Below are positions 2,329-26,977 of a DNA stretch of 32,000 nt, piece by piece. The notes under the pieces were generated by a model. The model saw only the letters and a list, made by a program, of their open reading frames with translations, ran no database searches and was not told the DNA's origin. The number at the start of each line of letters is the position of its first letter. Position 1 is the first letter of the stretch. The position numbers and the translations under genes were made by a program. Where the stretch lies: the NCBI GenBank assembly GCA_000043285.1, contig BX248583.1, positions 390,001 through 422,000 on the forward strand. Reading direction: 5' to 3'. Origin of the DNA: Candidatus Blochmanniella floridana. GTDB taxonomy: Bacteria > Pseudomonadota > Gammaproteobacteria > Enterobacterales > Enterobacteriaceae.

Positions 2329-4740
2329 ATGAAATTCAGTGAATCATGGATACGCGAATGGGTTAATCCTCCTATTGATCATGATCAATTAATAGATCAA
2401 TTTACTTTAGCTGGATTGAATGTAGAAGAATCTAGAAAATTAAACTCTAATAAATTTTATGGCATAGTTATTGCTAAAATCATAGAATGTCAAGTACATC
2501 CTAGCTTAGCCGATACATGGATAATGACAGTAAATAGTGGTGGAGGAAATATAATTAATATAATTACAAATAACATGAATTACAATAAAAATACAAAAGT
2601 AGTGGTAGCCAACATAGGAGCAATATTACCAAATGGTAATATAATTAAACAGATTAATATACAAGGAAGAAAATCAGAAGGAGTTTTATGCACTTTTTCA
2701 ATGTTAGGATTAAATTATTATACACAAAAAGGAATTATAGAATTACCTATCGATGCACCCATTGGGTGTAATTTTTACGATTATTTGCATTTTAACGATA
2801 ATATTATTGATATTAATATTACTCCTAATAGAGGAGATTGTTTAAGTGTAATAGGTTTATCTAGAGAAATCGCAGCTATTAATCAATGTAAATTAAAAAA
2901 AATAAATATCAAATCAAATGTTCCAAATATTTTGGATACCATTCCAATTATTATTGAAACTCCACACGATTGTCCTAAATTTTTAGGAAAAGTATTAAAA
3001 AATATAGATATCACTATTCCTACTCCTCTAAAAATACAAGAAAAATTAATTCGCTGTGGAATACAACCCATCAATATCATTACGGATATTGCAAATTATG
3101 TTTTATTAGAATTAGGACAACCAGTACGTATCTTTGATTATGAAAAAATTGATAAAAACATAATATATGTACGATTTTCCAAACCAGGAGAAACATTAAC
3201 ATTATCTGAAAATAATATTAATATAAAATTATTTTCAAAGACATTAGTTATATCTGATGTACGTAAACCATTAGCTATTGCTGGAGTTATCACAGGTAAT
3301 CAATCAAGTGTCTCTTGTTCAACTCATAATATATTTTTAAAAGTTGCTTTTTTTAATCCCCTAACTATTATAAATCAATATAAACTATATAATTTATATA
3401 CTTCTTCTGTTGTTCGTTATGAAAAAGGAATAGATCCTGATATATCCGAATTAGCATTGAATTATGCTACATCATTATTGATAAAGTATTGTCATGGAAA
3501 AGCAGGGCCAACGATAAATATTATAAGTCATAATCATTTACCAAAAATTAAAATCATTAAATTACATCGTTCCAAATTAAATATGATATTAGGATTTTAT
3601 ATTCCTGATCAAAAAATCATTAATATTTTAACTAATCTTGGATTTCAAGTAGAAACGCAAGGTCATAATTGGATAGTATCTACTCCAAGTTGGCGTTTTG
3701 ATATTAATATAGAAGAAAATGTAATATCTGAAATTATTCGAATATATGGATATAATCATATTCCGAAAATTCCAGCTAAAATATCATTAAATCAAACTGT
3801 TCAATGTATACCTAATCAAGTTATATCCTTATCAAAATCTAAAACTGTATTAATAGCTCGGGGTTATCAAGAAATAATAACATATAGCTTTGTTGATCCT
3901 AATATACAAAAACTATTACACCCTCAATGTATACCATTAACTTTAATGAATCCTATTAGCACAAATATGTCAGTTATGAGATTATCCTTATGGACTGGAT
4001 TAATTCAAACAATGTTATATAACCAAAATAGACAACACAAAAATATCAAACTCTTTGAAAGTGGAATATGTTTTATTCCAAAAAATTCTCATAGCAAACA
4101 AGTATCGCAACAATTAAGACTATCTGGAATTCGATCTGGTTTGAGACATTATGAACATTGGGATATACATACATCTTTAACTGATTTTTATGATATTAAA
4201 GGTGATGTAGAATCTATACTGTATTTATTTAATAAAAAAAATCAAAACAATAATATTCATTTTAAAAGTTGCACATATCCTGCCTTACACCCTGGGCAAA
4301 GTGCAGAAATATATTTAAATGATATATTTTTGGGATATGTAGGTGTAATTCATCCTATGATACAATATAAATTACGAATACATTCAAATGTCTTAGTGTT
4401 TGAGTTAATTTGGGATTCAATTGTTAATATAAAATCACAAAAGATTATTGATATTTCTAAATTTCCTAAAAATTATCGAGATATTTCTTTAATAATACCA
4501 ACTCATATTTCTGCATCATCTGTTATAGAAACATGTAAAAAAATTGGCATAATTAACTTAACTGAAGTTAAGTTAATTGATGTATATACAGGACGAAATA
4601 TACCAACTAATTTTAAAAGTTTAACTATTAAATTAACTTTACAAAGTAAAACACATACATTAAAAGAACAAGAGATTAAAGAGATTATCATTATATGTAC
4701 AACAACACTTAAAAAACATTTTAATGCTATTTTTAGATAA
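2329..4740 (+). CDS. pheT: Phenylalanine--tRNA ligase beta subunit
   Basis: 803 aa, starts MKFSESWIREWVNP as in E. coli PheT (MKFSELWLREWVNP). Length and position directly after pheS fit. Confidence 0.95.
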   Translation: MKFSESWIREWVNPPIDHDQLIDQFTLAGLNVEESRKLNSNKFYGIVIAKIIECQVHPSLADTWIMTVNSGGGNIINIITNNMNYNKNTKVVVANIGAILPNGNIIKQINIQGRKSEGVLCTFSMLGLNYYTQKGIIELPIDAPIGCNFYDYLHFNDNIIDINITPNRGDCLSVIGLSREIAAINQCKLKKINIKSNVPNILDTIPIIIETPHDCPKFLGKVLKNIDITIPTPLKIQEKLIRCGIQPINIITDIANYVLLELGQPVRIFDYEKIDKNIIYVRFSKPGETLTLSENNINIKLFSKTLVISDVRKPLAIAGVITGNQSSVSCSTHNIFLKVAFFNPLTIINQYKLYNLYTSSVVRYEKGIDPDISELALNYATSLLIKYCHGKAGPTINIISHNHLPKIKIIKLHRSKLNMILGFYIPDQKIINILTNLGFQVETQGHNWIVSTPSWRFDINIEENVISEIIRIYGYNHIPKIPAKISLNQTVQCIPNQVISLSKSKTVLIARGYQEIITYSFVDPNIQKLLHPQCIPLTLMNPISTNMSVMRLSLWTGLIQTMLYNQNRQHKNIKLFESGICFIPKNSHSKQVSQQLRLSGIRSGLRHYEHWDIHTSLTDFYDIKGDVESILYLFNKKNQNNNIHFKSCTYPALHPGQSAEIYLNDIFLGYVGVIHPMIQYKLRIHSNVLVFELIWDSIVNIKSQKIIDISKFPKNYRDISLIIPTHISASSVIETCKKIGIINLTEVKLIDVYTGRNIPTNFKSLTIKLTLQSKTHTLKEQEIKEIIIICTTTLKKHFNAIFR

Positions 4741-7926: not shown

Positions 7927-7992
7927 AATTGTATTTTCATTTTAAATACTATGTATGATACAAATAAATAATATCAAAAGGAGTATCTATTT

Positions 7993-8730: not shown

Positions 8731-10015
8731 TAATAAAACTCGTACATTAAATGAGTGGTATTATTTATTTAAAAAAAAGCATCCTGAATTTTCAAAAAAA
8801 AACAATAATTATTGGGAACAAAATATAATTAAATTTAATGAATCATACCACGCAATAAATGATCCTTGGAAATATTTTCCCATTGAAGAATTTTATAACA
8901 ATCAATTTATCCTCAATGAAGACGCCGCCATAAATTTATCAACATATAATAAATTACGTTTAAATATAGATTGTTATAGATTAGTATTTATTAACGGCCA
9001 ATTCTCATGTACATTAAGTGATCTAAATATAAATCCATGGATATTAAAAATTGATAACAATCTCAATTATTGGAATACATCAAAACCTATTCGTCCAACA
9101 ATGTTTTTATATTTAACTGAATATTTAAGCGATGTTGTAATACGAATTACATTACCTGAAAAAAAAATTACAAAAAAACCGTTATATTTATTGTATATTA
9201 ATTCAGGATCTGATACACCTAATGCATTAGCTATGTCACACTCTTATCATTACTTAGAAACAGGACAAAACACTGATGCATATGTTATCGAACATGTTGT
9301 AAACATAAATGAATATGCACACTTTAGTGGATCAAGAATGTTAATGTCTATAGGAAATAAATCAAAATTCAATCATGTTAAATTAATACTTAAAAATCAA
9401 TCTAGTTATCATATATCACATCAAGATATGCATATAAATTCATGTTCAGATGTACATAGTAATACTTTTGTTATTGCAGGCTCAAAATTTACATATCATC
9501 AAATCAGTTCTAAAATAAATTATTCAGAATCTTCTATATCATTAAATAGTTTAACTATTTTATCTGAAAGAAATATTAGTAATATGCGTACGTATATAGA
9601 ACATAATAATCAAAATTGTTCTATAAGCAGACAACTACATAAAATTATTGCTAGTGATTATAGCACTGGTATATTTGATGGTTTAATTAAAGTTAATCCA
9701 CATTCAATAAAAACGGATGGAAAAATGATTAACAATAATTTACTACTCAATAAAACTGCTTCAATATATACTATACCTAAACTTGAAATATACTCTGATT
9801 CGGTACAATGTAATCATGGATCTACAGTTGGGCATATAGATCTTAATCATTTATTTTATTTAAGTACACGAGGTATCTCTAAAAAAGATGCTATCAAAAT
9901 GTTAATAGATGCTTTTACTATAGAAAATATAAAAAAAATTCAAAATCTATCATTACAAAAAATAATAGCAGATAAAATAAAAAACGTTTTAACAAAAAAA
10001 ATAATATTTTTATGA
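8714..10015 (+). CDS. sufD: Fe-S cluster assembly protein SufD
   Basis: Position between sufC and sufS. The C-terminal SufB/SufD-family beta-helix region is recognisable (TDGKM.NN.LL....S....P.LEIY.D.V.C.HG.TVG..D...LFYL..RGI....A). ATG at 8714 is preferred to the TTG at 8699. It overlaps the sufC end by 17 nt. Confidence 0.85.
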   Translation: MVGYIDNKTRTLNEWYYLFKKKHPEFSKKNNNYWEQNIIKFNESYHAINDPWKYFPIEEFYNNQFILNEDAAINLSTYNKLRLNIDCYRLVFINGQFSCTLSDLNINPWILKIDNNLNYWNTSKPIRPTMFLYLTEYLSDVVIRITLPEKKITKKPLYLLYINSGSDTPNALAMSHSYHYLETGQNTDAYVIEHVVNINEYAHFSGSRMLMSIGNKSKFNHVKLILKNQSSYHISHQDMHINSCSDVHSNTFVIAGSKFTYHQISSKINYSESSISLNSLTILSERNISNMRTYIEHNNQNCSISRQLHKIIASDYSTGIFDGLIKVNPHSIKTDGKMINNNLLLNKTASIYTIPKLEIYSDSVQCNHGSTVGHIDLNHLFYLSTRGISKKDAIKMLIDAFTIENIKKIQNLSLQKIIADKIKNVLTKKIIFL

Positions 10016-11247
10016 TTTTATATCCGATAAAAAAAATTAGATTAGATTTTCCTATATTAAGTACGTTAATGAATTCTTATCCATTAGCTTATTTAGACAA
10101 TGCTGCAACTACTCAAAAACCTAATATTGTTATTGATTCACAATCATATTATTATAAAAATGAATGTTCTGCTGCTCATCGTAGCGTTCATAGTTTAAGC
10201 TCCATATCAACTAATCATATAGAAACTGTCCGAACATATATAGCTAAATTTATTAATACATCTATACCAGAAGAAATAATTTTTGTTAAAGGAGTAACGG
10301 ACGCTATCAATTTCATTGCCAATAGCTGGGGACGTAATTTCATAAATTATGGTGATAATATTCTAATAAGCGCAATGGAACATCATGCTAATATTTTACC
10401 ATGGCAAAACTTAGCAAAAGAAAAAAAAATTGAATTAAATTATATTCCTTTATTACCTGATGGTTCATTAAATTTATCTAAATTATCAGAATTAATTAAC
10501 CGTCGTACCAAATTATTATCCATTTCTCATATATCAAACGTATTAGGAATAATTAATCCTTTAACTGAAATAATTGATATTGTACGTACTAAAAGCAATG
10601 CAAGAATACTGATAGATGGAGCACAGGGAATTGCTCATCAAAAAGTAGATGTACAGAAATTAGATTGTGATTTTTATGTATTTTCAGGACATAAAATATA
10701 TGCTACTTATGGAGTTGGAATAATGTATGGAAAATATGAGTTACTCAATACTATGGATCCATGGGTAGTAGGAGGAGGAATCGTAAAAAATGTTAGTTTA
10801 ACTCAAGAACCAACCTTTGTAGATATCCCTTGGAAATTTGAACCAGGTTCTCCTGATGTTAGTGGAATCGTAGCTTTAGGTAATGCTGTTAAATATATCA
10901 ATACCATCGGTATAAAAAATATTTACAATTATGAAAATCAACTTATATCTTATGCAATAAATACTTTAAAACAACAAAATTTACATCTAACATTGTACGG
11001 TTCTGATTGTAATAAATCTAGTATAATTGCTTTCAATTTAAAATCGTATGATTCATATGACGTAGGAATGTTACTAAATCAATATGGAGTTGCTATACGT
11101 ACAGGACATCACTGCGCAATACCATTAATGAATCATTTTCAAGTTCCAGGAATGTGTCGAGCATCTATTGCTATGTATACTAATAAAGATGATATTGATC
11201 AATTTATTCATGGATTAAATCAAATAAAACATCTATTCCATGCATAA
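10012..11247 (+). CDS. sufS: Cysteine desulfurase SufS (PLP-dependent, group II)
   Basis: 411 aa collinear with E. coli SufS (DFP.L...N..PLAYLD.AA..QKP, MEHHANI.PWQ, DCDFYVFSGHK.Y, RTGHHCA.PLM, MCRAS.AMY). ATGA start/stop overlap with sufD. Confidence 0.95.
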   Translation: MILYPIKKIRLDFPILSTLMNSYPLAYLDNAATTQKPNIVIDSQSYYYKNECSAAHRSVHSLSSISTNHIETVRTYIAKFINTSIPEEIIFVKGVTDAINFIANSWGRNFINYGDNILISAMEHHANILPWQNLAKEKKIELNYIPLLPDGSLNLSKLSELINRRTKLLSISHISNVLGIINPLTEIIDIVRTKSNARILIDGAQGIAHQKVDVQKLDCDFYVFSGHKIYATYGVGIMYGKYELLNTMDPWVVGGGIVKNVSLTQEPTFVDIPWKFEPGSPDVSGIVALGNAVKYINTIGIKNIYNYENQLISYAINTLKQQNLHLTLYGSDCNKSSIIAFNLKSYDSYDVGMLLNQYGVAIRTGHHCAIPLMNHFQVPGMCRASIAMYTNKDDIDQFIHGLNQIKHLFHA

Positions 11248-11290
11248 TTATGATATATAATAATTATATTATTTTATTAAAAAATTAAAA

Positions 11291-11722
11291 ATGTTTCCTA
11301 CAAAAGAACAATTATTAAAAAATTTTTTCAGTTGCATGACTTGGGAAGAAAAATACCTATATATTATAGATCTTGGTAAATTATTACCAAGGTTTCCAGA
11401 AGATTTTCGAACTCAACAATATTTAGTATCTGGATGCCAAAGTCGCACATGGATTACTATAACTAATTATTCACACTATAATTCATCTAATAATGATTTT
11501 TTAGATTTTTATGGTGATAGTGACTCTACTATTATAAAAGGGGTTATTACGATAATTTTCAGTTTGTACCAAAATTTAAATATAAAATCAATCGTTAAGC
11601 TCGATGTATATAATTTCTTAAATCAGCTAAAGTTAAATCAACACGTAACTATCACTCGTGTACAAGGCATTTATTCCATAATTAATACTATTAAAATGCA
11701 AATTAATAATATAATTCCATAA
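11291..11722 (+). CDS. sufE: Cysteine desulfuration protein SufE
   Basis: 143 aa with the SufE active-site context (YLVSGCQSRTWI, cf. E. coli ...GCQSQVWI). Last gene of the suf cluster. Confidence 0.9.
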   Translation: MFPTKEQLLKNFFSCMTWEEKYLYIIDLGKLLPRFPEDFRTQQYLVSGCQSRTWITITNYSHYNSSNNDFLDFYGDSDSTIIKGVITIIFSLYQNLNIKSIVKLDVYNFLNQLKLNQHVTITRVQGIYSIINTIKMQINNIIP

Positions 11723-11736
11723 GTTCATAAAATAAA

Positions 11737-11804
11737 TAGAATCTAACACAATACTCCCGCCACTCAATATTTATTGAGTGGCGGGAGTATTGTGTTAGAT
11801 TCTA
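11737..11804. terminator. 68-nt palindrome (33-bp perfect arms, 2-nt TT centre) between convergent sufE and lpp. Probable intrinsic terminator, with the U-tract on the lpp (minus) side.
   Basis: 11737-11769 (TAGAATCTAACACAATACTCCCGCCACTCAATA) is the exact reverse complement of 11772-11804. The core is GC-rich (CTCCCGCCACTC). On the minus strand the stem is followed by ATTTATTTTATG. On the plus strand an A-run follows instead. Confidence 0.75.
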
Positions 11805-11821
11805 AAAATAAATATTATATT

Positions 11822-12184: not shown

Positions 12185-12258
12185 TGCGTTCTAATGGACT
12201 CGAACCATCGACCTCTACCATGTCACGGTAGCACTCTAACCAACTGAGCTAAGAACGC
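12185..12258 (-). tRNA. tRNA-Val (anticodon GAC), with no encoded 3' CCA
   Basis: The reverse complement folds by hand into a cloverleaf. Acceptor GCGTTCT/AGAACGC, D arm GCTC-AGTTGGTTA-GAGT, anticodon stem CTACC/GGTAG with loop GTGACAT, T arm GATGG-TTCGAGT-CCATT, discriminator A. Very similar to remembered E. coli valV/valW, which sit in the same lpp-ribC neighbourhood. Confidence 0.9.
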
Positions 12259-13704: not shown

Positions 13705-14376
13705 TTATTTATGATAACCTTCGTTGTTTGTAATCAACGAAGGTTTCCATGGCCATCCCCCAAGTTTTTTCCAAGCATTAACTAATGTACAAAATAAAAT
13801 AGCAGTTTTTTCAGCATCATATAAAGCAGAATGTGCTTTATTTTTATCAAATATAATTCCTGCATATTCACAAGCTTTAGATAATACAGTCTGCCCAAAT
13901 ACTAATCCACTCAAAGCAGCGGTATCAAATGTAACAAAAGGATGAAATGGATTATCTTGAATATTATTAGTACGTTCTGTTGCTGCCATTAAAAAACTAT
14001 GATCAAAAGAAGCATTATGTGCAACTATAATAGCTTTATTACATTGTTGAGCTTTAATTCCTACATGTACCATTTTGAAAATTTCAACTAATGCTTCTTG
14101 TTCTGTTACCGCAAATCTTAAGGGACTATTAGGATTAATTTTATTTAATGCTAGTGCCTCAGGTTGCAAAATAGCTCCCGGAAACGATTTAATATGGAAA
14201 TGTAACATGTTATCTACGTGTAACCAACCATCTTCGTTCATCTTTAAAGTAATGGTTGCAATTTCTAATAAAGCGTTCGTACTAGCATTTAGTCCTGACG
14301 TTTCAACATCAATGACAACAGGATAAAATCCTCTAAATCTTGCTTTCAGAGTATCAATATTAACTGGATCAATCAT
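13705..14376 (-). CDS. rnt: Ribonuclease T (DEDDh 3'-5' exoribonuclease)
   Basis: 223 aa collinear with E. coli RNase T ([90 protein letters not shown]). It has a C-terminal extension relative to E. coli. Confidence 0.95.
13716..13745. other. Hairpin (11-bp perfect stem AACCTTCGTTG/CAACGAAGGTT, 8-nt loop) at the convergent grxD/rnt junction, lying inside the last codons of rnt
   Basis: 13716-13726 is the exact reverse complement of 13735-13745. It lies 22 nt past the grxD stop and 9 nt before the rnt stop codon. No U-tract follows on either strand, so a classical terminator role is uncertain. Confidence 0.5.
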
Positions 14377-14930
14377 ATGTTATTAATTAATAAATAAATG
14401 GTTTGTAATTATTAATACATAAAGTTATCTGTACCAGAATATACATCAATATTCAAATATTTGTGTATAAAATACTTGAACATAAACTCAAGTGAGACTT
14501 ATAAAAATTAACATTTAATAATAAAATATCATCATTTAAATTCTTTAGATAACAAATATTATCTCTGCTGGATATATCAAATAATATCAAATTTCCAAAA
14601 TATCATAATATAATTATATTTATTTAATAAAAATAAATCTATCTAATTAATTGAAATTATGAATTTATTTTAAAAAAGATTAATAAATCTTATATTTTAA
14701 AATAATTATTCATAATAATAAATATATGTTATAATTATAACTTAATAAAGTTACATCATATATGTAATATAGTCATATGTATAATATCTTACAATGATAA
14801 ATACAATATCGAATCTAATGTAGATTAATGACACATAAATATGATATTATTTGTAATAATATACCCTATTTATATACAACCAGTTTTTATATTATATAAA
14901 AAGTCTGTATTTGCATAAAGGAGAAATAGA

Positions 14931-15365
14931 TTGGAATCATCATTAGGGTCAGATCTGGCCCGACTTGTTAGAATATGGCGCGCTTTAATTGATTACCGAT
15001 TAAAACCATTGAAACTTACACAAACACATTGGATTACGCTACATAATATCTATCAATTACCTCCCGATCAATCACAAATTCAATTAGCAAAAGCTATAGG
15101 AATTGAACAACCATCTTTAGTGAGGACATTGGATCAACTTGAATCAAAAGGACTAATTGTGAGAAACATATGCTCTAACGATCGAAGAGCTAAAAGAATT
15201 ACATTAACAGAATTAGCTAAACCTGTCATTAATCAAGTAAATCAAGTTATTAATGTTACACGAAATGAAGTGTTTTACGGATTACGTGTCGAAGAAATAC
15301 AACAATTAAATAATATTATTGCTAAATTAGAACGCAATATAATAAATTTATATAACAAAACATAA
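14931..15365 (+). CDS. slyA: MarR-family transcriptional regulator SlyA, TTG start
   Basis: 144 aa. The N-terminal ~76 aa are almost identical to remembered E. coli SlyA ([68 protein letters not shown]). AAGGAG Shine-Dalgarno 8 nt upstream of the TTG. As far as I recall, E. coli slyA also initiates at UUG. Confidence 0.93.
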
Positions 15366-15627
15366 CTCACTTTTAAAAATTCATAATGAATTCATTCACT
15401 TTAAAAATTAATTACAATTAACATTATCAATACACATCTAAAATTATAATATTCTAAAAAATTTATATTTAATTATTATTTAACACATACATCATATATA
15501 ATATATAAATTATGTAAAATATTAAATTAAAAATTTTACAAAATAACGGCATAAAAACGGTATTTATCTTGTATTGTTTTTACAGAATAATTTATGATAT
15601 AGTGATAGATAAAAACTTATTATTATT

Positions 15628-16272
15628 ATGCTTGAATTATCTAAAATTCATAATTTAAGAAGAGAATATATATCAAAACAATTTCGTCGATCAAATTTAA
15701 CTAAAAACCCTATGCATCTTTTTTCAAAATGGTTATATGAAGCCTATTGTCAAATACCTGATCCTAATGCTATGTGCCTATCAACTGTAGATCATACAGG
15801 ACAACCATTTCAAAGACTAGTTCTATTAAAATATTTCAATGATAAAACAATAGTATTTTTCACTCATTTAAACAGCCGAAAGGCTATACATATCAATAAT
15901 AATCCCAAAATTAGTCTATGTTTTCCATGGAACATTATAAATCGTCAAATTATTATCACTGGAAGTGTTTATAAAATCTCTAAAAAAGAAGCGCAAAAAT
16001 ATTTTTATACAAGACCTAAAAATAATCAAATTAGCACATGGGCATCAAAACAATCTACCATTATTTCATCTAAAAAAGTATTAAAAAATAAATTTTTGAA
16101 ATTAAAAAAAAAATATTTTCAAAAATCTGTACCATTTCCACATTTTTGGGTGGGATATAAAATAAATATTAATAGTATGGAATTTTGGCAAGGAGGAATA
16201 TATAGATTACATGATCGTTTTTTATATAAAAAAAACAAAAAAAAATGGTATATCAATCGATTATCTCCTTAA
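15628..16272 (+). CDS. pdxH: Pyridoxamine/pyridoxine 5'-phosphate oxidase
   Basis: 214 aa with LRREY, QR.VLLK, F.T...SRKA..I..NP..SL.FPW, FWVGY....... EFWQGG..RLHDRFLY. Collinear with E. coli PdxH and upstream of tyrS as in E. coli. Confidence 0.94.
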   Translation: MLELSKIHNLRREYISKQFRRSNLTKNPMHLFSKWLYEAYCQIPDPNAMCLSTVDHTGQPFQRLVLLKYFNDKTIVFFTHLNSRKAIHINNNPKISLCFPWNIINRQIIITGSVYKISKKEAQKYFYTRPKNNQISTWASKQSTIISSKKVLKNKFLKLKKKYFQKSVPFPHFWVGYKININSMEFWQGGIYRLHDRFLYKKNKKKWYINRLSP

Positions 16273-16391
16273 AATAATTACTAATTATTACATTTAACAC
16301 AATAAATTATAATATATTGATATACAATCCAATATATTATATATTACAAAAGATGCTGATTATGTTAATAATATAAAATAGATGCATTACT

Positions 16392-17684
16392 ATGAAATAT
16401 AATAACTCAATTCATATGATTGATAATATTATTGATTATTTATATGAACGCGGTTCAATCGCTCAAATTACTGATCGAAAAAAATTAAACGCAGTATTAA
16501 ACTCACAACCAATCACCTTATACTGTGGATTTGATCCAACAGCCGATAGTTTACATATAGGACATTTAGCCCCTTTGTTATGTTTAAAACGATTTCAAAA
16601 AGCAGGACATCGTCCACTAATTTTATTAGGAGGAGCAACTGGTTTAATTGGAGATCCTAGTTTTAAAGATTCAGAGCGTAAACTTCAATCATTTAACACA
16701 ACACAAAAATGGATAAAAAAAATAAAATTGCAAATTGCTTTATTTATTGATTGTAATAGTAATAATGCATCACAAGCACATATTATCGATAATTATTCAT
16801 GGTTTTCTTCTATGAATATCTTAACTTTTTTAAGAGATATAGGAAAATTTTTTTCTATCAATAAAATGATTAATAAAGATATTATAAAAAAAAGATTAAA
16901 AAATGATAATTATGGAATTTCTTATACTGAATTTTCATATAATTTAATGCAAAGTTATGATTTCGCACATATATATAAACATTATGATGCAATATTACAA
17001 ATTGGAGGATCAGATCAATGGGGTAATATTATATCAGGAATTGACTTGATTAAACGCATGTATAAAAAAAATGCTTATGGATTAACAGTACCGTTACTAA
17101 CTAATTTTAATAACATAAAGTTTGGAAAAACAGAAAAAAATACAATATGGTTAGATCCTGAAAAAACTAGCCCTTATCAATTTTATCAATACTGGATAAA
17201 TATTGATGATAAAAGTGCATATCACTTTCTAAAGATTTTTACTGATATCTCTGTACAAGATATAAATTCATTTAAAAATAGAGATCATAGTTATTCACAA
17301 GCTCAATATATATTAGCAGAAAATATGACACAATTAGTACATGGAAAAAGGGGATTAAATATAGCACAACGTATTAGTCAAAATCTATTTTCTTATAACA
17401 TATTAAAATTAACATTAAATGATTTTCATCAATTAATTCAAGATGGCATTCCAAACATAATATTAGAAACAAATACTTCATTACAAGAAGCATTAACAAA
17501 ATCAAAATTAGCAACATCTCGATCGCAAGCTCGATATTTTATTAAATCTAATGCAATAACTATAAATGCACATAAACAATCAAAAATAGAATATATTTTT
17601 CAAGATTCAGATCGAATATATAATCTGTATACTTTATTAAAAAGAGGTAAAAAAAACTATTGCCTTATTCAATGGAACATATAA
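16392..17684 (+). CDS. tyrS: Tyrosine--tRNA ligase
   Basis: 430 aa with the HIGH motif (LHIGHL) and KMSKS-type KFGKT. GGATGLIGDPSFK, IGGSDQWGNI.SGIDL and the C-terminal S4-like domain ...LLKRGKKNYCLI.W match E. coli TyrRS. The start could alternatively be the ATG at 16413. Confidence 0.95.
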   Translation: MKYNNSIHMIDNIIDYLYERGSIAQITDRKKLNAVLNSQPITLYCGFDPTADSLHIGHLAPLLCLKRFQKAGHRPLILLGGATGLIGDPSFKDSERKLQSFNTTQKWIKKIKLQIALFIDCNSNNASQAHIIDNYSWFSSMNILTFLRDIGKFFSINKMINKDIIKKRLKNDNYGISYTEFSYNLMQSYDFAHIYKHYDAILQIGGSDQWGNIISGIDLIKRMYKKNAYGLTVPLLTNFNNIKFGKTEKNTIWLDPEKTSPYQFYQYWINIDDKSAYHFLKIFTDISVQDINSFKNRDHSYSQAQYILAENMTQLVHGKRGLNIAQRISQNLFSYNILKLTLNDFHQLIQDGIPNIILETNTSLQEALTKSKLATSRSQARYFIKSNAITINAHKQSKIEYIFQDSDRIYNLYTLLKRGKKNYCLIQWNI

Positions 17685-17742
17685 GTATTGATAATGGATT
17701 GTTTATATAAACAATCCATTATCAATACTTATATGTTCCATT
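17671..17742. terminator. 72-nt perfect palindrome (36-bp arms, no spacer) spanning the stop codons and last codons of both tyrS (+) and nth (-). The U-tract is on the plus (tyrS) side.
   Basis: 17671-17706 (AATGGAACATATAAGTATTGATAATGGATTGTTTAT) is the exact reverse complement of 17707-17742. TTTT follows at 17743-17746. The tyrS stop is at 17682-17684 and the nth stop at 17729-17731, both inside the arms. Confidence 0.8.
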
Positions 17743-18370
17743 TTTTATCAAATTCACATAAATCATTAATAATACAGTTATTACAATCTGGATTTTTAGA
17801 TTTACAAGTATAACGACCATGTTTTACTAACCATCGATGGCAATTTCTTTTAAATTCTCTTGGAACTACTGACATTAACTTTCGCTCTACAGCAATAACG
17901 TTATGACCAGAAGCGAAACAACTACGATTACAAAATCGGAATACATGAGTATCTACTGCAATAGTAGATAAACCAAAACAAACATTTAAAATAATATTAG
18001 CAGTTTTTCTACCTATTCCAGGTAAAGACTCCAATTCTAATCGTTTTTTTGGTACAATACCATTGTATTGATTTATTAACAAATTGCAAATCTTAATAAG
18101 ATTTTCGGATTTTGAATTAAATAATCCAATACATTTAATATGCTGTTTAACACCATCTACACCTAAATTCAACATAGACTGAGGAGTATTAGCAATCTTA
18201 AATAAATTCTTAGTAATTTTATTAACTTGAACATCTCGAGCCTGAGCTGATAACAACGTTGCAACAAGGCACTCAAACACAGAATGATAAACCAAATCAT
18301 CTTGATCATGCATATCATAATTATAATTTTTCAATCTACATAAAATCTGATAACGCTTCAAATTATTCAT
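17729..18370 (-). CDS. nth: Endonuclease III (DNA glycosylase/AP lyase)
   Basis: 213 aa with the HhH-GPD motif LPGIGRKTANIILN, IAVDTH.FR and the 4Fe-4S ligand pattern C-x6-C-x2-C-x5-C (CKSKNPDCNNCIINDLC). Collinear with E. coli Nth. Confidence 0.95.
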   Translation of the reverse strand: MNNLKRYQILCRLKNYNYDMHDQDDLVYHSVFECLVATLLSAQARDVQVNKITKNLFKIANTPQSMLNLGVDGVKQHIKCIGLFNSKSENLIKICNLLINQYNGIVPKKRLELESLPGIGRKTANIILNVCFGLSTIAVDTHVFRFCNRSCFASGHNVIAVERKLMSVVPREFKRNCHRWLVKHGRYTCKSKNPDCNNCIINDLCEFDKKWNI

Positions 18371-18456
18371 ACTATAACATGTATTAATTTAATATTTATA
18401 TGAACGTTAATAATATTAAACAACAACTAAATTATCTTAAATAAAAATCATTATAC

Positions 18457-19803
18457 CTACATATCAGGATAAATCATATTTTCTGGACAAACCCAATCAT
18501 CAAACTGTTTTTCAGTTACGTAACCCGATTGTATCGATGCAGCTTTTAAAGTAATTCCATTTAAATAAGCTGTTTGAGCAATTTGTGCTGATTTATCATA
18601 TCCTATATGAGAACTTAATGCTGTTACTAACATTAAAGATTTGTTTAACAATTTTTCAATTCTTTTGAATTTTGGTCTGATACCCACAATACAATAATCA
18701 TGAAAATTTTTTATACTATCTGTAAGTAATCGTATTGATTGTAAAAAATTGTAAATAATTAAAGGCCTATATGTATTTAATTGTAACTGTCCAGATGAAC
18801 CTCCCAAACTAATGCTTAAATCATTACCCATAACTTGGCAACATGACATAGTCATAGACTCACATTGCGTAGGATTAACTTTACCAGGCATAATAGAACT
18901 TCCAGGTTCATTAGCAGGAATAATCAACTCTCCCAGACCACACTGAGGACCAGATGATAACAAACGTATATCGTTTGCAATCTTCATCATGGATATAGCT
19001 AATCCCTTCAAAGTCCCATGACTATAAACTATAGCATCACACGTAGATAAAGATTCAAATTTATTAGGAGCGCTAAAAAAAGAGTGATGAATTAGTTTAG
19101 ACAAGCCTAATACAACACGTTCTGCATATTCTACATGAGCGCTAAATCCTGTCCCTACTGCCGTTCCTCCTAATGCCAATGCACTTAAATCAAGAATAGT
19201 TGATTGAATATGATTTGTATTATTTTTTAACATAAAATCCCATCCGGAAATTTCTTGCCCTAAAGTCAATGGAATAGCATCCTGCAAATGAGTACGTCCA
19301 ATTTTTATAATATTACGAAATTCAATAGATTTTTTTAAAAAAGTTTTTTGTAATAATTTAATTACAGGTATTAGTTTTGTTTTTAAATTAACTACTGCTG
19401 CAATGTGCATTGCACTAGGAAAAACATCATTTGAACTTTGACTTTTATTGACATGATCGTTTGGATGTACGACTATATTTATCTGATTTTTTCTTAATAA
19501 TTCATTTGCCCTATTTGCCAAAACTTCATTCATATTCATATTGCTTTGAGTACCAGATCCAGTTTGCCACACTGATAATGGAAATTCATTTTTATGATTG
19601 CCAGATAATATTTCATCTACTGCTGCAATAATAGCTTGAGAACGTTCATAATCAAGTAATTTTAAATCATAATTTACTTGAGCTGATACTCGTTTTATTT
19701 GAGCTAATGCTTTAATTAATTCCCAAGGCATTTTTTCTGTAGAAATATTAAAAAATTTTAAAGAAGATTCTGTTTGATCTCCCCATAATCTATTACATAT
19801 CAT
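18457..19803 (-). CDS. fumC: Class II fumarate hydratase
   Basis: 448 aa. WQTGSGTQSNMNMNEVLANRA, VHPND.VNKSQSSNDVFP, GRTHLQDA.PLTLGQE and the GSSIMPGKVNPTQCE signature match E. coli FumC. The N-terminus is about 19 aa shorter than E. coli, and an in-frame TAA lies 7 codons upstream of the ATG. Confidence 0.93.
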   Translation of the reverse strand: MICNRLWGDQTESSLKFFNISTEKMPWELIKALAQIKRVSAQVNYDLKLLDYERSQAIIAAVDEILSGNHKNEFPLSVWQTGSGTQSNMNMNEVLANRANELLRKNQINIVVHPNDHVNKSQSSNDVFPSAMHIAAVVNLKTKLIPVIKLLQKTFLKKSIEFRNIIKIGRTHLQDAIPLTLGQEISGWDFMLKNNTNHIQSTILDLSALALGGTAVGTGFSAHVEYAERVVLGLSKLIHHSFFSAPNKFESLSTCDAIVYSHGTLKGLAISMMKIANDIRLLSSGPQCGLGELIIPANEPGSSIMPGKVNPTQCESMTMSCCQVMGNDLSISLGGSSGQLQLNTYRPLIIYNFLQSIRLLTDSIKNFHDYCIVGIRPKFKRIEKLLNKSLMLVTALSSHIGYDKSAQIAQTAYLNGITLKAASIQSGYVTEKQFDDWVCPENMIYPDM

Positions 19804-19943: not shown

Positions 19944-21986
19944 ATGATTATATATAATCTAAATACTCACATTAAATCTTTTCTAGTATTTACCTTAATT
20001 ATAAAATTAATAATGCTAGATTCCCTAGCGTATTATAATTGTATATCTAAATTTGATACGCATAAATTCATTCATGCTTATACATATAACAATATAACTA
20101 ATACATATGACATATATCAATCTAAAATCAATAAATTATCACTAATTAATATTAATAAAAACAACAATAATATTAATTACTATTACTTTTCAAATAATAA
20201 TACTGTATTACTATCAGAGTATTATAAATATAATAATCAATCTCAAATACAAATAAAAAATGATTCAATAGATTTCTTTCATGTATTGTTAGAATATCCA
20301 TGGAATATGCAATACAAAAAAATCTTATACTTTCTGCAAATAGGGATGAAAAATTTTACAGAAAATAAAATGATTGTTTTTGGCAGCGGAAAAAGATTAG
20401 TTTATAATAAAAAACATATTATAGGATATAATGCTTGTTATCATCATCCTATATCTACTATACAATCTCAACCATATTCTATAAATATTGGAGGTGAATA
20501 TTGGTATCGAAATTTAAAATTTATATTCAATAATTATTATAATATTAACGAAATTTTTTACTCTTATAAGAATATATCGAACCATCATTATTATCAGTAT
20601 CCAAAAATTGGATATCAAATCTGTGCAAAAAGTAATTTTCCATATATCTCAGAATTTATAGGACAAATAAAATTTGAACAATGCGTTTACGATAAAACCA
20701 GAAACAATATACGATTTTGGAATGCGAATAATAAGAATCACATTCTATGTGTAAGCTTAGAATATCAACCTATTCCTATGTTTAATCTATCCATCAACAA
20801 TCGTTTTATATATAAAAAATATTGTAATACTTTTTTCACAATAACATTAAATTATCAATTTCATGTACCGTTAAAACAACAACTCAATAATGTAAATAAT
20901 AATATACAACAAAATAAAATAATATTTAATAATCATCTCAATTCCATACTAAACCCCTTCATTCCTTCTATTGATCCATATTTTATTAAAACTAACAATT
21001 CTAATGAAATTTTATTGACACAATCAAATAATGAAATAATCGGATATCCTGGAGAAAGAAAATTCATTCAAATTGAAGACTATAAAACAAATATACAATG
21101 GAATTACGAATCATTAAAAAAACAAGGCGGAAAAATTTTTCATATACACAATAATCTATATGAAATACATTTACCTAAATCTACTCATTCTATAACAGAT
21201 ATATTTCTTACTTATATTTCGGAATTAAATATAGATAATACAATACATTATACGCAACAAAAAATAAGTATTATTACAAAAAATCCCGACGAACGACAAT
21301 TACAGAATATTCAGTTAGATAGCATATATCCTGATAATATACAAGACAATCCACAATTATTTGTTACTCAGGATACAATCCCAATCAGTAATACCAGTCA
21401 AAATAATCAAAATAAGCAACTTTATGATAATGATATTACTTCAAATAATACCATATCTTCCCAAGATAACAAAAGCAATGAAAAAGATGATACAAAAACG
21501 ATTATTACACTTAATGACGACAATGATAACAATTCAAATGATTTTAACAACATACCTACGCCACCACCAATGTTATTATCTTCTAATAAGTTCGAACTTG
21601 CACAACCACCCCTATTAAGATCATTGTCTCTATCTACTATACAACAAGAAAAAAAGATTGATTTAAATACAACAGATATAAACAAACATAGTGGTCAATC
21701 CTCACTTACTGTACAACAAGATAAGTATGATGATGAAAATCAATATCATTCTAATCATAATATAAATGAATCAAATAACACTGATTTAGCTTGTCGTTTA
21801 TTAATACATAAAAAAACTAATTTTTTATCAATCAATACAAATGCATATGTAGAAAATTTAGAAAAGTCTATATTAGAAAGAAAAAAAATCAAACGTATGA
21901 GTGATATGGAAAAGATTTTTAATAAATTACGTATTACTCAATCACAGTCATCTATTGATGAATCTACAACAACAGATGACAGTTAA
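19944..21986 (+). CDS. Putative inverse autotransporter (intimin/invasin-family outer-membrane protein). It has an N-terminal hydrophobic leader, a beta-barrel-like region at about aa 115-313, one invasin-like proximal passenger segment, then an N/D/Q-rich low-complexity C-terminal half.
   Basis: Uninterrupted 680-codon ORF. Ordered motifs match remembered invasin/intimin beta-domains: LLEYPW..ILYFLQIGMKN....FGSGKR; SINIGGEYWYRNLKFIFNNY; FPYISEFIGQIKFEQCVYD; SLEYQPIPMFNLSI; ITLNYQFHVPLKQQL; then NIQWNYESLKKQGGKIFH. There is no obvious Shine-Dalgarno, so the start codon is uncertain. No search was run. Confidence 0.6.
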   Translation: MIIYNLNTHIKSFLVFTLIIKLIMLDSLAYYNCISKFDTHKFIHAYTYNNITNTYDIYQSKINKLSLININKNNNNINYYYFSNNNTVLLSEYYKYNNQSQIQIKNDSIDFFHVLLEYPWNMQYKKILYFLQIGMKNFTENKMIVFGSGKRLVYNKKHIIGYNACYHHPISTIQSQPYSINIGGEYWYRNLKFIFNNYYNINEIFYSYKNISNHHYYQYPKIGYQICAKSNFPYISEFIGQIKFEQCVYDKTRNNIRFWNANNKNHILCVSLEYQPIPMFNLSINNRFIYKKYCNTFFTITLNYQFHVPLKQQLNNVNNNIQQNKIIFNNHLNSILNPFIPSIDPYFIKTNNSNEILLTQSNNEIIGYPGERKFIQIEDYKTNIQWNYESLKKQGGKIFHIHNNLYEIHLPKSTHSITDIFLTYISELNIDNTIHYTQQKISIITKNPDERQLQNIQLDSIYPDNIQDNPQLFVTQDTIPISNTSQNNQNKQLYDNDITSNNTISSQDNKSNEKDDTKTIITLNDDNDNNSNDFNNIPTPPPMLLSSNKFELAQPPLLRSLSLSTIQQEKKIDLNTTDINKHSGQSSLTVQQDKYDDENQYHSNHNINESNNTDLACRLLIHKKTNFLSINTNAYVENLEKSILERKKIKRMSDMEKIFNKLRITQSQSSIDESTTTDDS

Positions 21987-22018: not shown

Positions 22019-22118
22019 AAGCAAATCTGAATCTTGGCTAGGAATAAATCAACAAAACCATTGTGATTAATCACAATGGTTTTGTTGATTTATTCCTAGC
22101 CAAGATTCAGATTTGCTT
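22019..22118. terminator. 100-nt perfect palindrome (50-bp arms, no spacer) between the 680-aa ORF (+) and ubiX (-). The right arm encodes the last 16 codons of ubiX, and the ubiX stop codon sits at the palindrome centre. The U-tract is on the minus (ubiX) side.
   Basis: 22019-22068 (AAGCAAATCTGAATCTTGGCTAGGAATAAATCAACAAAACCATTGTGATT) is the exact reverse complement of 22069-22118, checked base by base. An A-run at 22011-22018 gives a U-run after the stem on the minus-strand transcript. Confidence 0.8.
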
Positions 22119-22666
22119 AAGGGATCAGAATAAATACCAAATAAATTTAACATTCTTATTACACTATAGTATACAATATCATCTATAGTTTTAGGATTTG
22201 TATAATATGCTGGAACTGGAGGCATAATTACAGCTCCAAATTCAGCTAATTTTACCATAGTTCTCAAATGCCCCACATGTAAAGGAGTTTCTCTAATTAT
22301 TAAAACTAATTTTCTTTTTTCTTTCAACATAACATCCGCAACACGACTAATTAATGATGACGTCACACCTGATTTAATTTCTGACATTGTTTTAATTGAA
22401 CACGGAGCTATCAACATCCCTAAAGTTTTATATGAACCACTAGATATAATGGCCCCAATATCTTGAGAAAAATATACAAAATCTGCCATTTTTTGTATAG
22501 ATTGACGATGAATATTTAGTTCGTGTTTCAATGTAACTAAAGCATTACGTGTTACAACAAGATGAGATTCTATATTATATTTCTTCAATATAGACAAAGC
22601 TTTAATTCCATAAATTCCTCCAGAAGCTCCTGATATTCCAACAATTAAACGTAATTTTCTACACAT
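22067..22666 (-). CDS. ubiX: Flavin prenyltransferase UbiX
   Basis: 199 aa. LIVGISGASG.IYG, SSGS..TLGM.I.PCSIKT, V.LKE.R.LVL..RETPLH.GHLR.M...AE.GAVIMPPVPA.Y matches E. coli UbiX. The C-terminus is a few residues longer than in E. coli. Confidence 0.94.
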   Translation of the reverse strand: MCRKLRLIVGISGASGGIYGIKALSILKKYNIESHLVVTRNALVTLKHELNIHRQSIQKMADFVYFSQDIGAIISSGSYKTLGMLIAPCSIKTMSEIKSGVTSSLISRVADVMLKEKRKLVLIIRETPLHVGHLRTMVKLAEFGAVIMPPVPAYYTNPKTIDDIVYYSVIRMLNLFGIYSDPLSKSESWLGINQQNHCD

Positions 22667-22729
22667 AATTACCTTCCAATATCAAAATAATACAATATTT
22701 TTCATCTATCAAATATTTATCAACACATA

Positions 22730-23506
22730 TTAATTACTAATTAAAAATAGCTCATTAACCTTCCTTAATGACTCTGGAGTATCTACACTGATATTACGTA
22801 TATTATCCATTACAGACACATATATTGTTTCTCCATTCCATAGTATTCGTAATTGCTCAAGCATTTCATATTTCTCTAACGAACTTTTAATCCAGTTCAT
22901 ATAACGACTCAGAAAATTAACACGATAAGCATAAATCCCAATATGACGTAACCATATACCTAATTCTTGATTGAAATCATGATTAATGCTCATCCAAGGA
23001 ATCATCGAACGAGAAAAATATAAAGCAACACCATATATATTTACAACAACTTTAACGATATTACTATCTATTACTTCGTTATAAAAAAATATTGGAGTAG
23101 CTAACGTTGATACACTAATATTATTAGAGGTAGTCATATTAAAAACATCAACTATTTGATGAATCATATATGATGAAATTAAAGGTTCATCACCTTGTAA
23201 TTGTACAATGATTTGATCATCTGCAAATCTATAACGTTTAACGATTTCTGAAATACGTTCAGTTCCTGATTGATGATCAGAGTAAGTTAAACACACTTCA
23301 ACTTTATCTCCAAAAGAATAATATTCATACTCAACTATTTGTTTTATAGAAACACTATCAGTAGCTACTATTATTTTAGTAGTTTTAGTGGTTAACGCCT
23401 TTTCTATAACTCGTATAATCATAGGTTTACCCTGAATATCAGCCAACAATTTTCCAGGAAAACGAGAGGAAAAAAACCGAGCAGGAATAATGATTATAAA
23501 ATTCAT
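22730..23506 (-). CDS. kdsB: 3-deoxy-manno-octulosonate cytidylyltransferase (CMP-Kdo synthetase)
   Basis: 258 aa. IIIPAR..S.R.PGK.L.DI.GKPMI, HQSGTERI.E, VQLQGDEPLI, ALYFSR..IPW, RH.GIY.YR, LE..EMLEQLR.LW.GE.I.V match E. coli KdsB. Confidence 0.94.
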   Translation of the reverse strand: MNFIIIIPARFFSSRFPGKLLADIQGKPMIIRVIEKALTTKTTKIIVATDSVSIKQIVEYEYYSFGDKVEVCLTYSDHQSGTERISEIVKRYRFADDQIIVQLQGDEPLISSYMIHQIVDVFNMTTSNNISVSTLATPIFFYNEVIDSNIVKVVVNIYGVALYFSRSMIPWMSINHDFNQELGIWLRHIGIYAYRVNFLSRYMNWIKSSLEKYEMLEQLRILWNGETIYVSVMDNIRNISVDTPESLRKVNELFLISN

Positions 23507-23694
23507 TGGTTATCTATAATTTTGCAATTCAAATATCGAATTTGATTTTTTAATAAAACTGGAATTCCTTGTTTTAGAGGAAAACTAATGTTCTCAATAT
23601 TACAAATTAATTCTGTTTCTGTATCATTCATAAATAACCGTGTATAACAAAAAGGACAAACGATAATTTCTAATAATTTTTTTTGCATAATCAC
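23503..23694 (-). CDS. ycaR: Trm112/UPF0434-family small zinc-ribbon protein YcaR
   Basis: 63 aa. LLEII.CP.C...L.......ELIC......FPL..GIPVLL matches E. coli YcaR. ATGA overlap with kdsB, and lpxK-ycaR-kdsB order as in E. coli. Confidence 0.88.
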   Translation of the reverse strand: MIMQKKLLEIIVCPFCYTRLFMNDTETELICNIENISFPLKQGIPVLLKNQIRYLNCKIIDNQ

Positions 23695-23749
23695 ACACTA
23701 TCATCATTAATATGTCACAATTATAAAATTAATGCTCAAACACTCCATT

Positions 23750-24751
23750 TTAATTATTTTTATAATACTGAATTGTACTCTCTATCTTAGATAATAATTT
23801 TTTTGTATCTTCTTGATGTATGTTAACATCTATATGTACATACCACCAGTTTTCATGCGCAAAATCTAAACATTTAATAGCATCTTTTTCTGTCATTAAT
23901 AACATTTCATTTCCAGAAGTAAGAGAAGATAACATTATTTCAGAATACATATGATGATCAGAAAATTCTATTGTTTTGATAGGAAAAATTCCATAATCTT
24001 GTAAAGTCATAAAAAATTGCTTCGGATATCCAATTCCAGCTATAGCTACAACGTCCTTCAATGGTTGAATAGGTCGAATCTCCCCTGTTACAAGATTAAT
24101 TATTGATCTAGGACATAACTGCATTAGTATTGCACCAGATTGAATATCATTACTTAATCCATTAATAATAATTGCCTGCACTGTATTTAGTCGAGTAATT
24201 CGTTCACGCATAGGCCCAGCCGGTAACCAACAACCATTTCCGAAACGACGTAGACTATGTACAACCACCCACTCTATATCTCTAAAAAGAGCATAATGTT
24301 GCAACCCATCATCACTAATGATTATATCTAATAAAGGTTGCTTTTTTAATAAAGCAGATACAGCTTTAACTCTGTTAGGAGAAACAGATACTAATACACC
24401 CGTCCTCCTCCAAATAAGTAATGGTTCATCTCCACATTTTTTACTACAACTAGTACTATTAATAATAATCGGATACTTATCAGACCTACCGCCATAACCC
24501 CTAGAAACTACTCCAACTCTCCAACCACGAGTCTTTAATTGATCAATTAACCATAATACCATGGGAGTTTTTCCGTTACCTCCAATAGTTAAATTTCCAA
24601 TAACTATAATAGGCACTGAAAATCGATATACTTTACGCCATCCATATTTATAACTAATGCGATTTAACGTACTGAAAAATCCATATACCCAAGAAAAAGG
24701 AAGTAAAAATAAATAACATAATGATGAACCAAACCAAATATTAAACAACAT
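23750..24751 (-). CDS. lpxK: Tetraacyldisaccharide 4'-kinase (lipid A biosynthesis)
   Basis: 333 aa. LLPFSW.YG, P-loop VIGNLT.GGNGKTP.V.WL, VVSRGYGG, GDEP, DDGLQHY.L.RD.E, RRFGNG.WLPAGPMRE, MTEKDA.KC, ENWWY match E. coli LpxK. Confidence 0.94.
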   Translation of the reverse strand: MLFNIWFGSSLCYLFLLPFSWVYGFFSTLNRISYKYGWRKVYRFSVPIIVIGNLTIGGNGKTPMVLWLIDQLKTRGWRVGVVSRGYGGRSDKYPIIINSTSCSKKCGDEPLLIWRRTGVLVSVSPNRVKAVSALLKKQPLLDIIISDDGLQHYALFRDIEWVVVHSLRRFGNGCWLPAGPMRERITRLNTVQAIIINGLSNDIQSGAILMQLCPRSIINLVTGEIRPIQPLKDVVAIAGIGYPKQFFMTLQDYGIFPIKTIEFSDHHMYSEIMLSSLTSGNEMLLMTEKDAIKCLDFAHENWWYVHIDVNIHQEDTKKLLSKIESTIQYYKNN

Positions 24752-26502: not shown

Positions 26503-26923
26503 GTATACACCCAATTACAATTCTACACTTATGCACTAATCACATTTAATAAAACTCTATAATAATGTTTATACATTGTAATTTTACAAATTACGGTCCA
26601 TTTTATACATAACAATGATACAAAATTTTGATGGTATCAAAATTACATTTAAATTTTAAAACTATATAAATATAATGATGCTATCATTTAACATAAAATT
26701 TCGTTGAACTTTATCTATAATATCTAATCCTATTAACATGCATCATATATTATGATCTATATATAAATTATATTGATATATGATCATATATCACCAAATG
26801 ACTCAAGATAAATCCATGTTGCTAAAAATTTTCTATTATTTTAATAATAGAATATATCTATTATTTTTTAACTACCAAATCATAATATAATTTATTTATA
26901 TCATAAAATTCTAAAAAAACTTC

Positions 26924-26950
26924 ACATATTAATATACTATATTAATATGT
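26924..26950 (-). terminator. Possible intrinsic terminator downstream of rpsA (13-bp AT-rich stem around a single central base)
   Basis: ACATATTAATATA (26924-26936) and TATATTAATATGT (26938-26950) are reverse complements. On the minus strand the stem is followed by GAAGTTTTTTT. The stem has only one G:C pair, so stability is doubtful. Confidence 0.35.
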
Positions 26951-26977
26951 ATTTTTTAAATAAAATATTAATAAATA

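Follow-up and report, generated by a model that had tools for sequence, protein, structure and literature searches.

The genes for tyrosine--tRNA ligase (tyrS) and endonuclease III (nth) converge in the genome of Candidatus Blochmanniella floridana (B. floridanus in what follows), and their 3' ends are joined by a perfect 72-nt palindrome that runs into both reading frames. We analysed this element within a 32,000-nt stretch of the genome (GenBank assembly GCA_000043285.1, contig BX248583.1, positions 390,001 to 422,000 of the forward strand), which is referred to as the window and whose own numbering is used for all B. floridanus coordinates. The corresponding region was compared in seven relatives, namely B. 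vafer, B. pennsylvanicus, B. modoc, B. vicinus, B. nipponensis, B. ocreatus and one Blochmannia from a Camponotus species ('sp'), which with B. floridanus makes eight genomes. The junction is organised as follows:

16392..17684, plus strand: tyrS, tyrosine--tRNA ligase (TIGR00234, E=3e-119); stop codon TAA at 17682-17684
17671..17706: left arm of the 72-nt palindrome, made up of the last 2 nt of the tyrS Gln427 codon, Trp-Asn-Ile-stop (17673-17684) and 22 nt of spacer
17707..17742: right arm, made up of 22 nt of spacer, the minus-strand stop-Ile-Asn-Trp of nth and the last 2 nt of the invariant Lys210 codon
17729..18370, minus strand: nth, endonuclease III; stop codon at 17729-17731; protein 100% identical to B. 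floridanus CAD83438
17743..17748, plus strand: U-tract, TTTTAT directly after the stem on the tyrS transcript, which on the opposite strand is the Lys-Lys codons of nth

Positions 17671-17706 (AATGGAACATATAAGTATTGATAATGGATTGTTTAT) are the exact reverse complement of 17707-17742, giving arms of 36+36 nt with a gap of 0 and 0 mismatches. Each arm overlaps its gene by 14 nt, which comprise 2 nt of the preceding codon, the Trp-Asn-Ile codons and a TAA; both stop codons thus lie within the arms, and TyrS (...CLIQWNI) and Nth (...DKKWNI) share the ending W-N-I-stop. All of this bears out an earlier note on this DNA, made from the sequence alone, which had drawn attention to the palindrome and the mirrored protein ends. 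The 44-nt spacer between the two genes is itself a 22+22 palindrome. When Nth is aligned to E. coli 2abk the alignment extends through the last iron-sulphur (Fe-S) cysteine, and the WNI tail lies beyond it. For TyrS no identical protein is on record, probably owing to a different annotated start. The longest perfect arm found in dinucleotide-preserving shuffles of the window (n=100) was 14 nt, which excludes a chance origin for the perfect arms of 33-50 nt described here.

Palindromes of this class are already known from the genus. Williams & Wernegreen (2010, BMC Genomics 11:687; PMC3017870) searched three Blochmannia genomes with EMBOSS palindrome (30-1000 bp, gap <=20 bp, <=3 mismatches) and reported palindromes with total lengths of 62-136 bp, 20 of them in B. 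floridanus (62-104 bp), 10 in B. vafer and 6 in B. pennsylvanicus, every one except two being at least partly intergenic. They suggested a role in transcription control or mRNA stability, arguing that palindromes would decay if no selection acted on them. Their study gives counts, and does not give positions, an origin, a link to convergent junctions, overlap with stop codons or shared C-termini; neither a mechanism nor intrusion into coding ends is described in it. With 36+36 nt, no gap, no mismatch and a central 44 nt that is intergenic, the tyrS/nth element belongs to this class, and its 100% complementarity of adjacent sequence over 36 nt also has the form of a template-switch product.

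The element can be recognised in independent data. A Logan contig (SRR11554989, L086) matches window positions 17719-18807 with 3 single-nucleotide polymorphisms (SNPs) in 1,089 nt; it contains 24 nt of the right arm and the same ...DKKWNI-stop, and it ends inside the palindrome. A break at this place is how a k-mer assembler is expected to behave at a palindrome, and with this agreement an assembly artefact is unlikely. The contig end at 17719 is 12 nt from the palindrome centre and ~6 nt before the first branch expected in a k=31 de Bruijn graph. One of the three SNPs changes Nth R175 to K, and an indel upstream of the marR-family gene, within an (AT)n-like tract, is seen in a second contig from the same strain (L087, equivalent to window 14824-16637), such that an ungapped comparison is shifted from 14889 on.

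Adjacency of the two genes is much older than the palindrome. In E. coli the order is nth-dtpA-gstA-pdxY-tyrS-pdxH, and the proteins end in ...CLICWK* (TyrS) and ...KEKVDI* (Nth). What the earlier note says of E. coli is thus correct; it went on to propose that junction and palindrome arose after deletion of the intervening genes. The order fumC-nth / tyrS-pdxH is, however, common to all eight Blochmannia genomes, and the palindrome is present in B. floridanus only. It follows that dtpA-gstA-pdxY had already been lost in the ancestor of the genus, in an event that has nothing to do with the palindrome, and we reject this loss as the trigger. No long palindrome was found at nth/tyrS in any of the seven other Blochmannia, whose Nth proteins are 59-69% identical and whose spacers are too diverged to be aligned, and folding of the spacers gave z-scores of -2.4 to +1.0 in these relatives versus -17 in B. 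floridanus. Since the hairpin is missing at seven of eight orthologous junctions it is evidently not required there, and a similarly sporadic pattern across species is seen at the other three convergent junctions of the region.

Comparison of the protein ends shows that the two C-termini have different histories. TyrS ends in W-K or W-E in all seven relatives, and the Trp in the terminal region, being shared by E. coli and every Blochmannia TyrS, is ancestral; only the last residue has changed (K/E to N-I). In Nth the tail after the invariant Lys210 varies in length and sequence, a Trp is found there in 0 of 26 other Nth sequences, and the WNI tail is unique to B. floridanus. The view that both C-termini were rewritten to fit the hairpin consequently stands for Nth but for TyrS reaches no further than the final residue, and none of the seven relatives combines the absence of the palindrome with WNI ends, the combination that would have marked those ends as ancestral. 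One distant Nth from Logan (P0025) ends ...DKKNI. Free variation of the Nth tail is also seen between B. pennsylvanicus (213 aa) and B. modoc (209 aa), which differ by a single CGA-to-TGA change (L005 versus L088, ~10630-10642). As to the source of the outer 14 nt, the Trp favours tyrS, and a hint in the same direction is given by a weak similarity of the left arm to the correspondingly placed sequence downstream of tyrS in B. pennsylvanicus, where it is 13/15, and in B. modoc (p=0.016, uncorrected for 14 tests); the inner arm did not resemble the B. vafer spacer significantly (p=0.14). Asn-Ile-stop could also derive from nth in a separate event, with only the Trp coming from tyrS (compare the ...DKKNI ending).

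Either strand of the palindrome folds into a hairpin of ~34 bp with a 4-nt loop and a stem of ~22% GC (ΔG ~ -48 kcal/mol, z ~ -12). On the tyrS strand the tail, including the two terminal U's of the stem, reads UUUUUUAU (RNA UUUUUUAUC), and the tail in the nth direction is GAAUAAGG, with no U-tract. The stem departs from that of a canonical intrinsic terminator (5-14 bp, GC-rich, with a loop of 3-8 nt), and the flank upstream, CCUUAUUC, has no A-tract of the kind that a bidirectional terminator would show. A consensus terminator scan returned a match on both strands, which was discarded, as the stem had been cut to 20 pairs and stem bases counted as tail. A terminator or 3'-stabiliser effect for tyrS is plausible on these features, and any such function would be secondary.

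Two further long palindromes and one imperfect inverted repeat lie at the remaining convergent junctions of the window:

11737..11804: sufE/lpp palindrome, 33+2+33 and perfect, in a convergent spacer; GC-rich core CTCCCGCCACTC; U-rich tail in the lpp direction
13711..13750: imperfect inverted repeat (16/19) at the grxD/rnt junction, the fourth convergent one (10-nt spacer), and within the 3' end of rnt
22019..22118: invasin-like/ubiX palindrome, 50+50, gap 0 and perfect, at a convergent junction with its centre on the ubiX stop codon

In the ubiX palindrome the final 16 codons of the gene, those of the conserved WLGI motif among them, form the right arm, and the left arm is an inverted copy in the spacer. 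As the coding arm holds conserved protein sequence, it must have been the template and the intergenic arm the copy. An 11-mer from the sufE-proximal arm of the sufE/lpp palindrome is present at the homologous place in B. vafer. Both palindromes have a U-tract in one direction only (lpp and ubiX), with none in the sufE or invasin-like direction; the ubiX transcript has a run of seven U's here, beginning with the last two bases of the stem. No sequence is shared among the three long palindromes, or between them and anything else in the 176 kb of the eight genomes surveyed, and a search of Rfam returned nothing at or above the gathering score, only sub-threshold matches to eukaryotic microRNA (miRNA) precursors that are generic for long hairpins. 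The sufE/lpp palindrome is bounded on both sides (11729-11736 and 11805-11812) by a direct repeat, AAAATAAA, which resembles a target-site duplication and is probably a chance occurrence in DNA of 26% GC. At the fourth junction the B. floridanus RNase T (13705-13750, minus strand) has a 14-residue tail after the conserved LGGWP, the longest among six species; the DNA encoding this tail is the 16/19 inverted repeat, in appearance the partly decayed remains of a palindrome lying in a coding region.

We surveyed these 176 kb for palindromes, allowing arm identity down to 80% and listing those of at least 16 pairs. Nineteen were found, of which 18 are 100% Watson-Crick paired and one 95%; all have gaps of <=4 nt and none contains a G:T position. 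Their centres all lie in spacers or on a stop codon, though 82.5% of the sequence is coding, and where spacers are short the palindromes intrude into genes. Eight lie at convergent, seven at divergent and four at tandem junctions. Equally perfect palindromes in divergent and tandem spacers indicate a process that is not specific to convergent junctions or to 3' ends. The earlier suggestion that terminator hairpins are built by inverted duplication of a gene's 3' end is therefore sustained as regards the copying of adjacent sequence, as seen in the WLGI-bearing arm of ubiX, but not as regards 3' ends or terminators, the tyrS/nth hairpin itself being absent from seven of eight junctions. Perfect pairing without G:T fits copying at the level of DNA better than selection at the level of RNA. 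Repeated re-symmetrisation, rapid turnover or selection could each contribute to the scarcity of decayed copies.

Direct evidence of how such palindromes change comes from the relatives, in which the same 20-kb region contains many perfect, near-gapless palindromes whose positions differ between lineages. At lpp/sufE, for instance, B. vicinus has 30+30, B. nipponensis 41+41 and B. floridanus 33+2+33, each a different palindrome. At rnt/grxD, B. pennsylvanicus has TTGTGTGTCTGTATAGTAG|CTACTATACAGACACACAA (19+19), and 11 nt of this right arm (ACAGACACACA) are missing in B. modoc (95.8% tyrS identity) and in the outgroup 'sp' (93.1%); the 11-nt insertion is the exact reverse complement of the left flank of B. 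pennsylvanicus itself and has lengthened the palindrome from 8+8 to 19+19. In the divergent marR/rnt spacer a 17+2+17 palindrome has become 33+2+33 in B. vicinus. Here the left flank (ATATTTATTATTGTAGG) is conserved in five species, and the B. vicinus right flank (CCTACAATAATAAATAT), which is the reverse complement of that left flank, replaces 17 nt present in the other four; in the inner arms a 1-nt deletion and a C>T/G>A change are each mirrored. A second hairpin at rnt/grxD shows a mirrored C:G to T:A difference between B. pennsylvanicus and 'sp', and in the latter it has been extended to 22+1+22, far enough to take in the grxD stop codon. Finally, the arms of the marR/rnt palindrome (TAAATTATTTTTAATAC nn GTATTAAAAATAATTTA) are identical in B. 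pennsylvanicus, B. modoc and 'sp', and its loop is aa in the first two and tt in the third. This palindrome has no arm substitution across these three species, which are 93-96% identical in tyrS, and can be recognised in two more:

marR/rnt palindrome in the five species: L005:13818-13853, L088:13818-13853, L092:13820-13855, L090:13810-13835, L089:13725-13792

Situated upstream of a MarR/SlyA-family gene, it could serve as the operator of that regulator, and it is the only palindrome of the set that looks selectively conserved. The footprints expected of template switching are stem extension, insertion within one half of a stem, several simultaneous compensatory changes and loop inversion (Monttinen & Loytynoja 2022; PMC8794818), and yeast inverted repeats display arm homogenisation with spacer inversion (PMC8604942) or with expansion (PMC13100816). 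Read from the aligned sequences, the block insertions, block replacements, mirrored changes and loop flip in the relatives are footprints of this kind, that is, of quasipalindrome mutation. They are seen at sister palindromes of the relatives, and at the tyrS/nth palindrome itself such changes are not observable.

The repair background of the genus is also relevant. An ortholog table for three Blochmannia genomes has no entries for sbcC/D, recA, xseA/B, mutS or mutL, and sbcB and rho are present. In E. coli, SbcCD attacks long palindromes, and exonucleases I and VII (ExoI and ExoVII) suppress quasipalindrome mutation. Template switching at E. coli quasipalindromes does not depend on RecA, and both replication blocks and recB mutations increase it (PMC6357072). 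Palindromes would thus be expected to form more readily, and to survive, in the Blochmannia background.

We consider it likely that the tyrS/nth palindrome is a product of replication template switching (a quasipalindrome or 'snap-back' event) and not a purpose-built terminator. The nascent strand would transiently copy the opposite arm of a short inverted repeat, turning the neighbouring sequence into its exact reverse complement and extending the palindrome outward. With a spacer of only 44 nt this extension would enter both tyrS and nth, and would have stopped at, or been tolerated only up to, the dispensable extreme C-termini. In this way Nth would have come to end in Trp-Asn-Ile-stop, a mirror image of the tyrS end, in which the Trp is ancestral. 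The absence of SbcCD, RecA, ExoVII and MutSL may then have allowed the palindrome to persist, and in the tyrS direction the hairpin and U-tract probably end or stabilise the tyrS mRNA and hinder convergent read-through, as a by-product. The templated changes themselves are observed in the relatives; that the same mechanism made the B. floridanus element, which arm was its template, and that it has terminator activity are points we infer.

Chief among the alternatives is a selected intrinsic, possibly bidirectional, terminator or mRNA 3' stabiliser, in which pairing is kept by selection and the shared C-termini are the price of the 44-nt spacer. It would explain the very stable RNA hairpins on both strands, the U-tracts after the tyrS, ubiX and lpp stems and the presence of long palindromes at three of the four convergent junctions among ~31 spacers in the window, and it agrees with the decay argument of Williams & Wernegreen (PMC3017870) and with the conservation of the marR/rnt palindrome across species. 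We nevertheless regard it as unlikely. Seven of eight species have no significant structure at nth/tyrS, the other three junctions are as sporadic, and palindromes of equal perfection occupy divergent spacers, where a terminator would be senseless. Stems of 33-50 bp with zero G:U pairs and zero bulges are far above what termination needs, and U-tracts are lacking in the nth, sufE and invasin-like directions, as is any upstream A-tract. Block insertions and replacements, moreover, are impossible by compensatory selection acting point by point, and Rho has been retained. An element acting at the DNA level, either as a cruciform or as the site of a dimeric protein with a role in nucleoid organisation, fork pausing or termination, or regulation, seems less probable still. 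A perfect dyad with 0-2 nt between its arms is the best arrangement for extruding a cruciform, the change in gene-strand bias and GC skew around 8-20 kb points to a possible replication terminus, and the conserved marR/rnt palindrome is placed as an operator might be; however, the three window palindromes are unrelated in sequence and so do not imply a common binding protein, they are lineage-specific, positive supercoiling between convergent genes disfavours cruciform extrusion, and no candidate protein was identified.

The two remaining explanations are very improbable. Insertion of a small palindromic mobile element across both gene ends, of the type of repetitive extragenic palindromic (REP) sequences, miniature inverted-repeat transposable elements (MITEs) or Rickettsia palindromic elements (RPEs), has a precedent in RPEs, which insert in frame into genes, and might be read into the AAAATAAA repeats around the sufE/lpp palindrome. 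Each palindrome is, however, single-copy within the window and the seven syntenic loci, and the three are mutually unrelated; the ubiX arm is ancestral coding sequence, Rfam gives no match that reaches the gathering score, and flanks such as AAAATAAA are unremarkable at 26% GC. With no related copies in the window or in the relatives' loci, this explanation is rejected. It is equally hard to credit a cloning or assembly artefact of the 2003 Sanger genome, such as a chimeric inverted clone. There is a single complete B. floridanus assembly, and in the earlier survey palindromes disrupted both Velvet assembly and Sanger reads (PMC3017870), but both the WNI tail of nth and 24 nt of the arm recur in the independent run, whose contig breaks inside the palindrome, similar palindromes occur in seven Blochmannia genomes that were sequenced independently, two palindromes at gaps in the B. 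vafer assembly were closed by hand from existing Illumina reads (PMC3017870), and the open reading frames are intact.

Several observations weigh against template switching as the origin of the tyrS/nth palindrome. Applying this mechanism here means extrapolating from sister palindromes of other lineages; the Nth of the nearest relative is only 69% identical to that of B. floridanus, so that the ancestral junction sequence is not reconstructible; and beside the one complete assembly the independent contig confirms one arm only. All three long palindromes of the window lie at convergent junctions and each has a U-tract in one direction, which hints at function, and both the near-total lack of decayed palindromes and the exact conservation of the marR/rnt 17+2+17 palindrome across three species could reflect selection.

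Beyond the individual locus, we raise tentatively, and without regarding it as the likelier case, the idea that Blochmannia may run an unusually active and continuing process of palindrome-making, in which palindromes are created, extended and re-symmetrised, terminator-like hairpins are supplied de novo and C-terminal codons are overwritten. Loss of SbcCD, RecA, ExoVII and mismatch repair combined with repeated template switching would explain why 18 of 19 palindromes are flawless. If the idea is true, the birth of terminators and of C-termini from one mutational mechanism could be watched across a dated host phylogeny.

Other features of the window are recorded here. Over ~8000-22000 gene orientation changes from all-plus (35-11722) to all-minus (22067-31903) and GC skew from about 0 to strongly negative, which together form the pattern expected at a replication terminus. 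Three of the genome's ~20 large palindromes lie within this 32 kb. Two shorter perfect palindromes are present at 28773-28802 (14+2+14, TTTTTCATCATCAT cc ATGATGATGAAAAA), in a tandem spacer, and at 4551-4578 (13+2+13), in the 3' part of an 803-aa open reading frame (2329..4740). The invasin-like gene next to ubiX (19944-21986, plus strand) encodes a 680-aa inverse-autotransporter/invasin-like protein with an IAT_beta domain and weak NCBIfam matches to YchO/YchP invasin and SinH, and it is kept in all eight of these obligate intracellular genomes. Between lpp and the plus-strand gene that follows is a tRNA gene (12185-12258, minus strand; Rfam RF00005, 63.6 bits).

Where long perfect stems come from is an old puzzle, for which template switching has been proposed mainly from ribosomal RNA (rRNA), miRNA and yeast data. 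Blochmannia supplies unusually clean bacterial cases, with block changes that can be polarised between species 4-7% apart, and hence a mechanistic explanation for an observation that had been unexplained since 2010. It also reveals a consequence not previously described for these palindromes, namely the invasion of coding 3' ends and the rewriting of protein C-termini. A strong hairpin between convergent genes need not be a selected terminator, which calls for caution in interpreting such structures. In practical terms, palindromes break short-read assemblies at gene ends, and the adjacent C-termini and stop codons are easily mis-annotated.

The tyrS/nth palindrome resembles Rho-independent and bidirectional terminators in its location at convergent 3' ends, its stable hairpin and its U-tract in one direction. 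It differs from them in a stem of 34-36 bp with 22% GC where 5-14 bp and a high GC content are usual, in its extension into both open reading frames, in the lack of A-tract/U-tract symmetry and in not being conserved. Hairpin inversions in plastid spacers are alike in being spacer palindromes whose loop flips between identical arms, and REP sequences with their bacterial interspersed mosaic elements (BIMEs) and the RPEs are also spacer palindromes, the RPEs with occasional in-frame intrusion into genes; in contrast to all of these, the Blochmannia palindromes are unique and locally derived, and form no repeated families. The closest match in organism and class is with the large palindromes of PMC3017870, the 72-, 68- and 100-bp palindromes of the window being within the criteria and size range of that study; selection was suggested there, whereas our comparisons point to a mutational origin. 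In mechanism the closest parallel is with template-switch or quasipalindrome mutation, as formulated in the Ripley model and followed in the E. coli quasipalindrome reporters of the Lovett laboratory (PMC6357072), in genome comparisons (PMC8794818) and in yeast (PMC8604942, PMC13100816). The footprints are alike, and common to both are perfect stems made in one step, changes to coding sequence included. Compared with these systems the Blochmannia arms are much longer (up to 50 nt) and near gapless, in an endosymbiont that lacks recA, sbcCD and mutSL, and at tyrS/nth a single palindrome reaches across two convergent genes, so that two unrelated proteins finish with the same three residues and their stop codons are mirrored.

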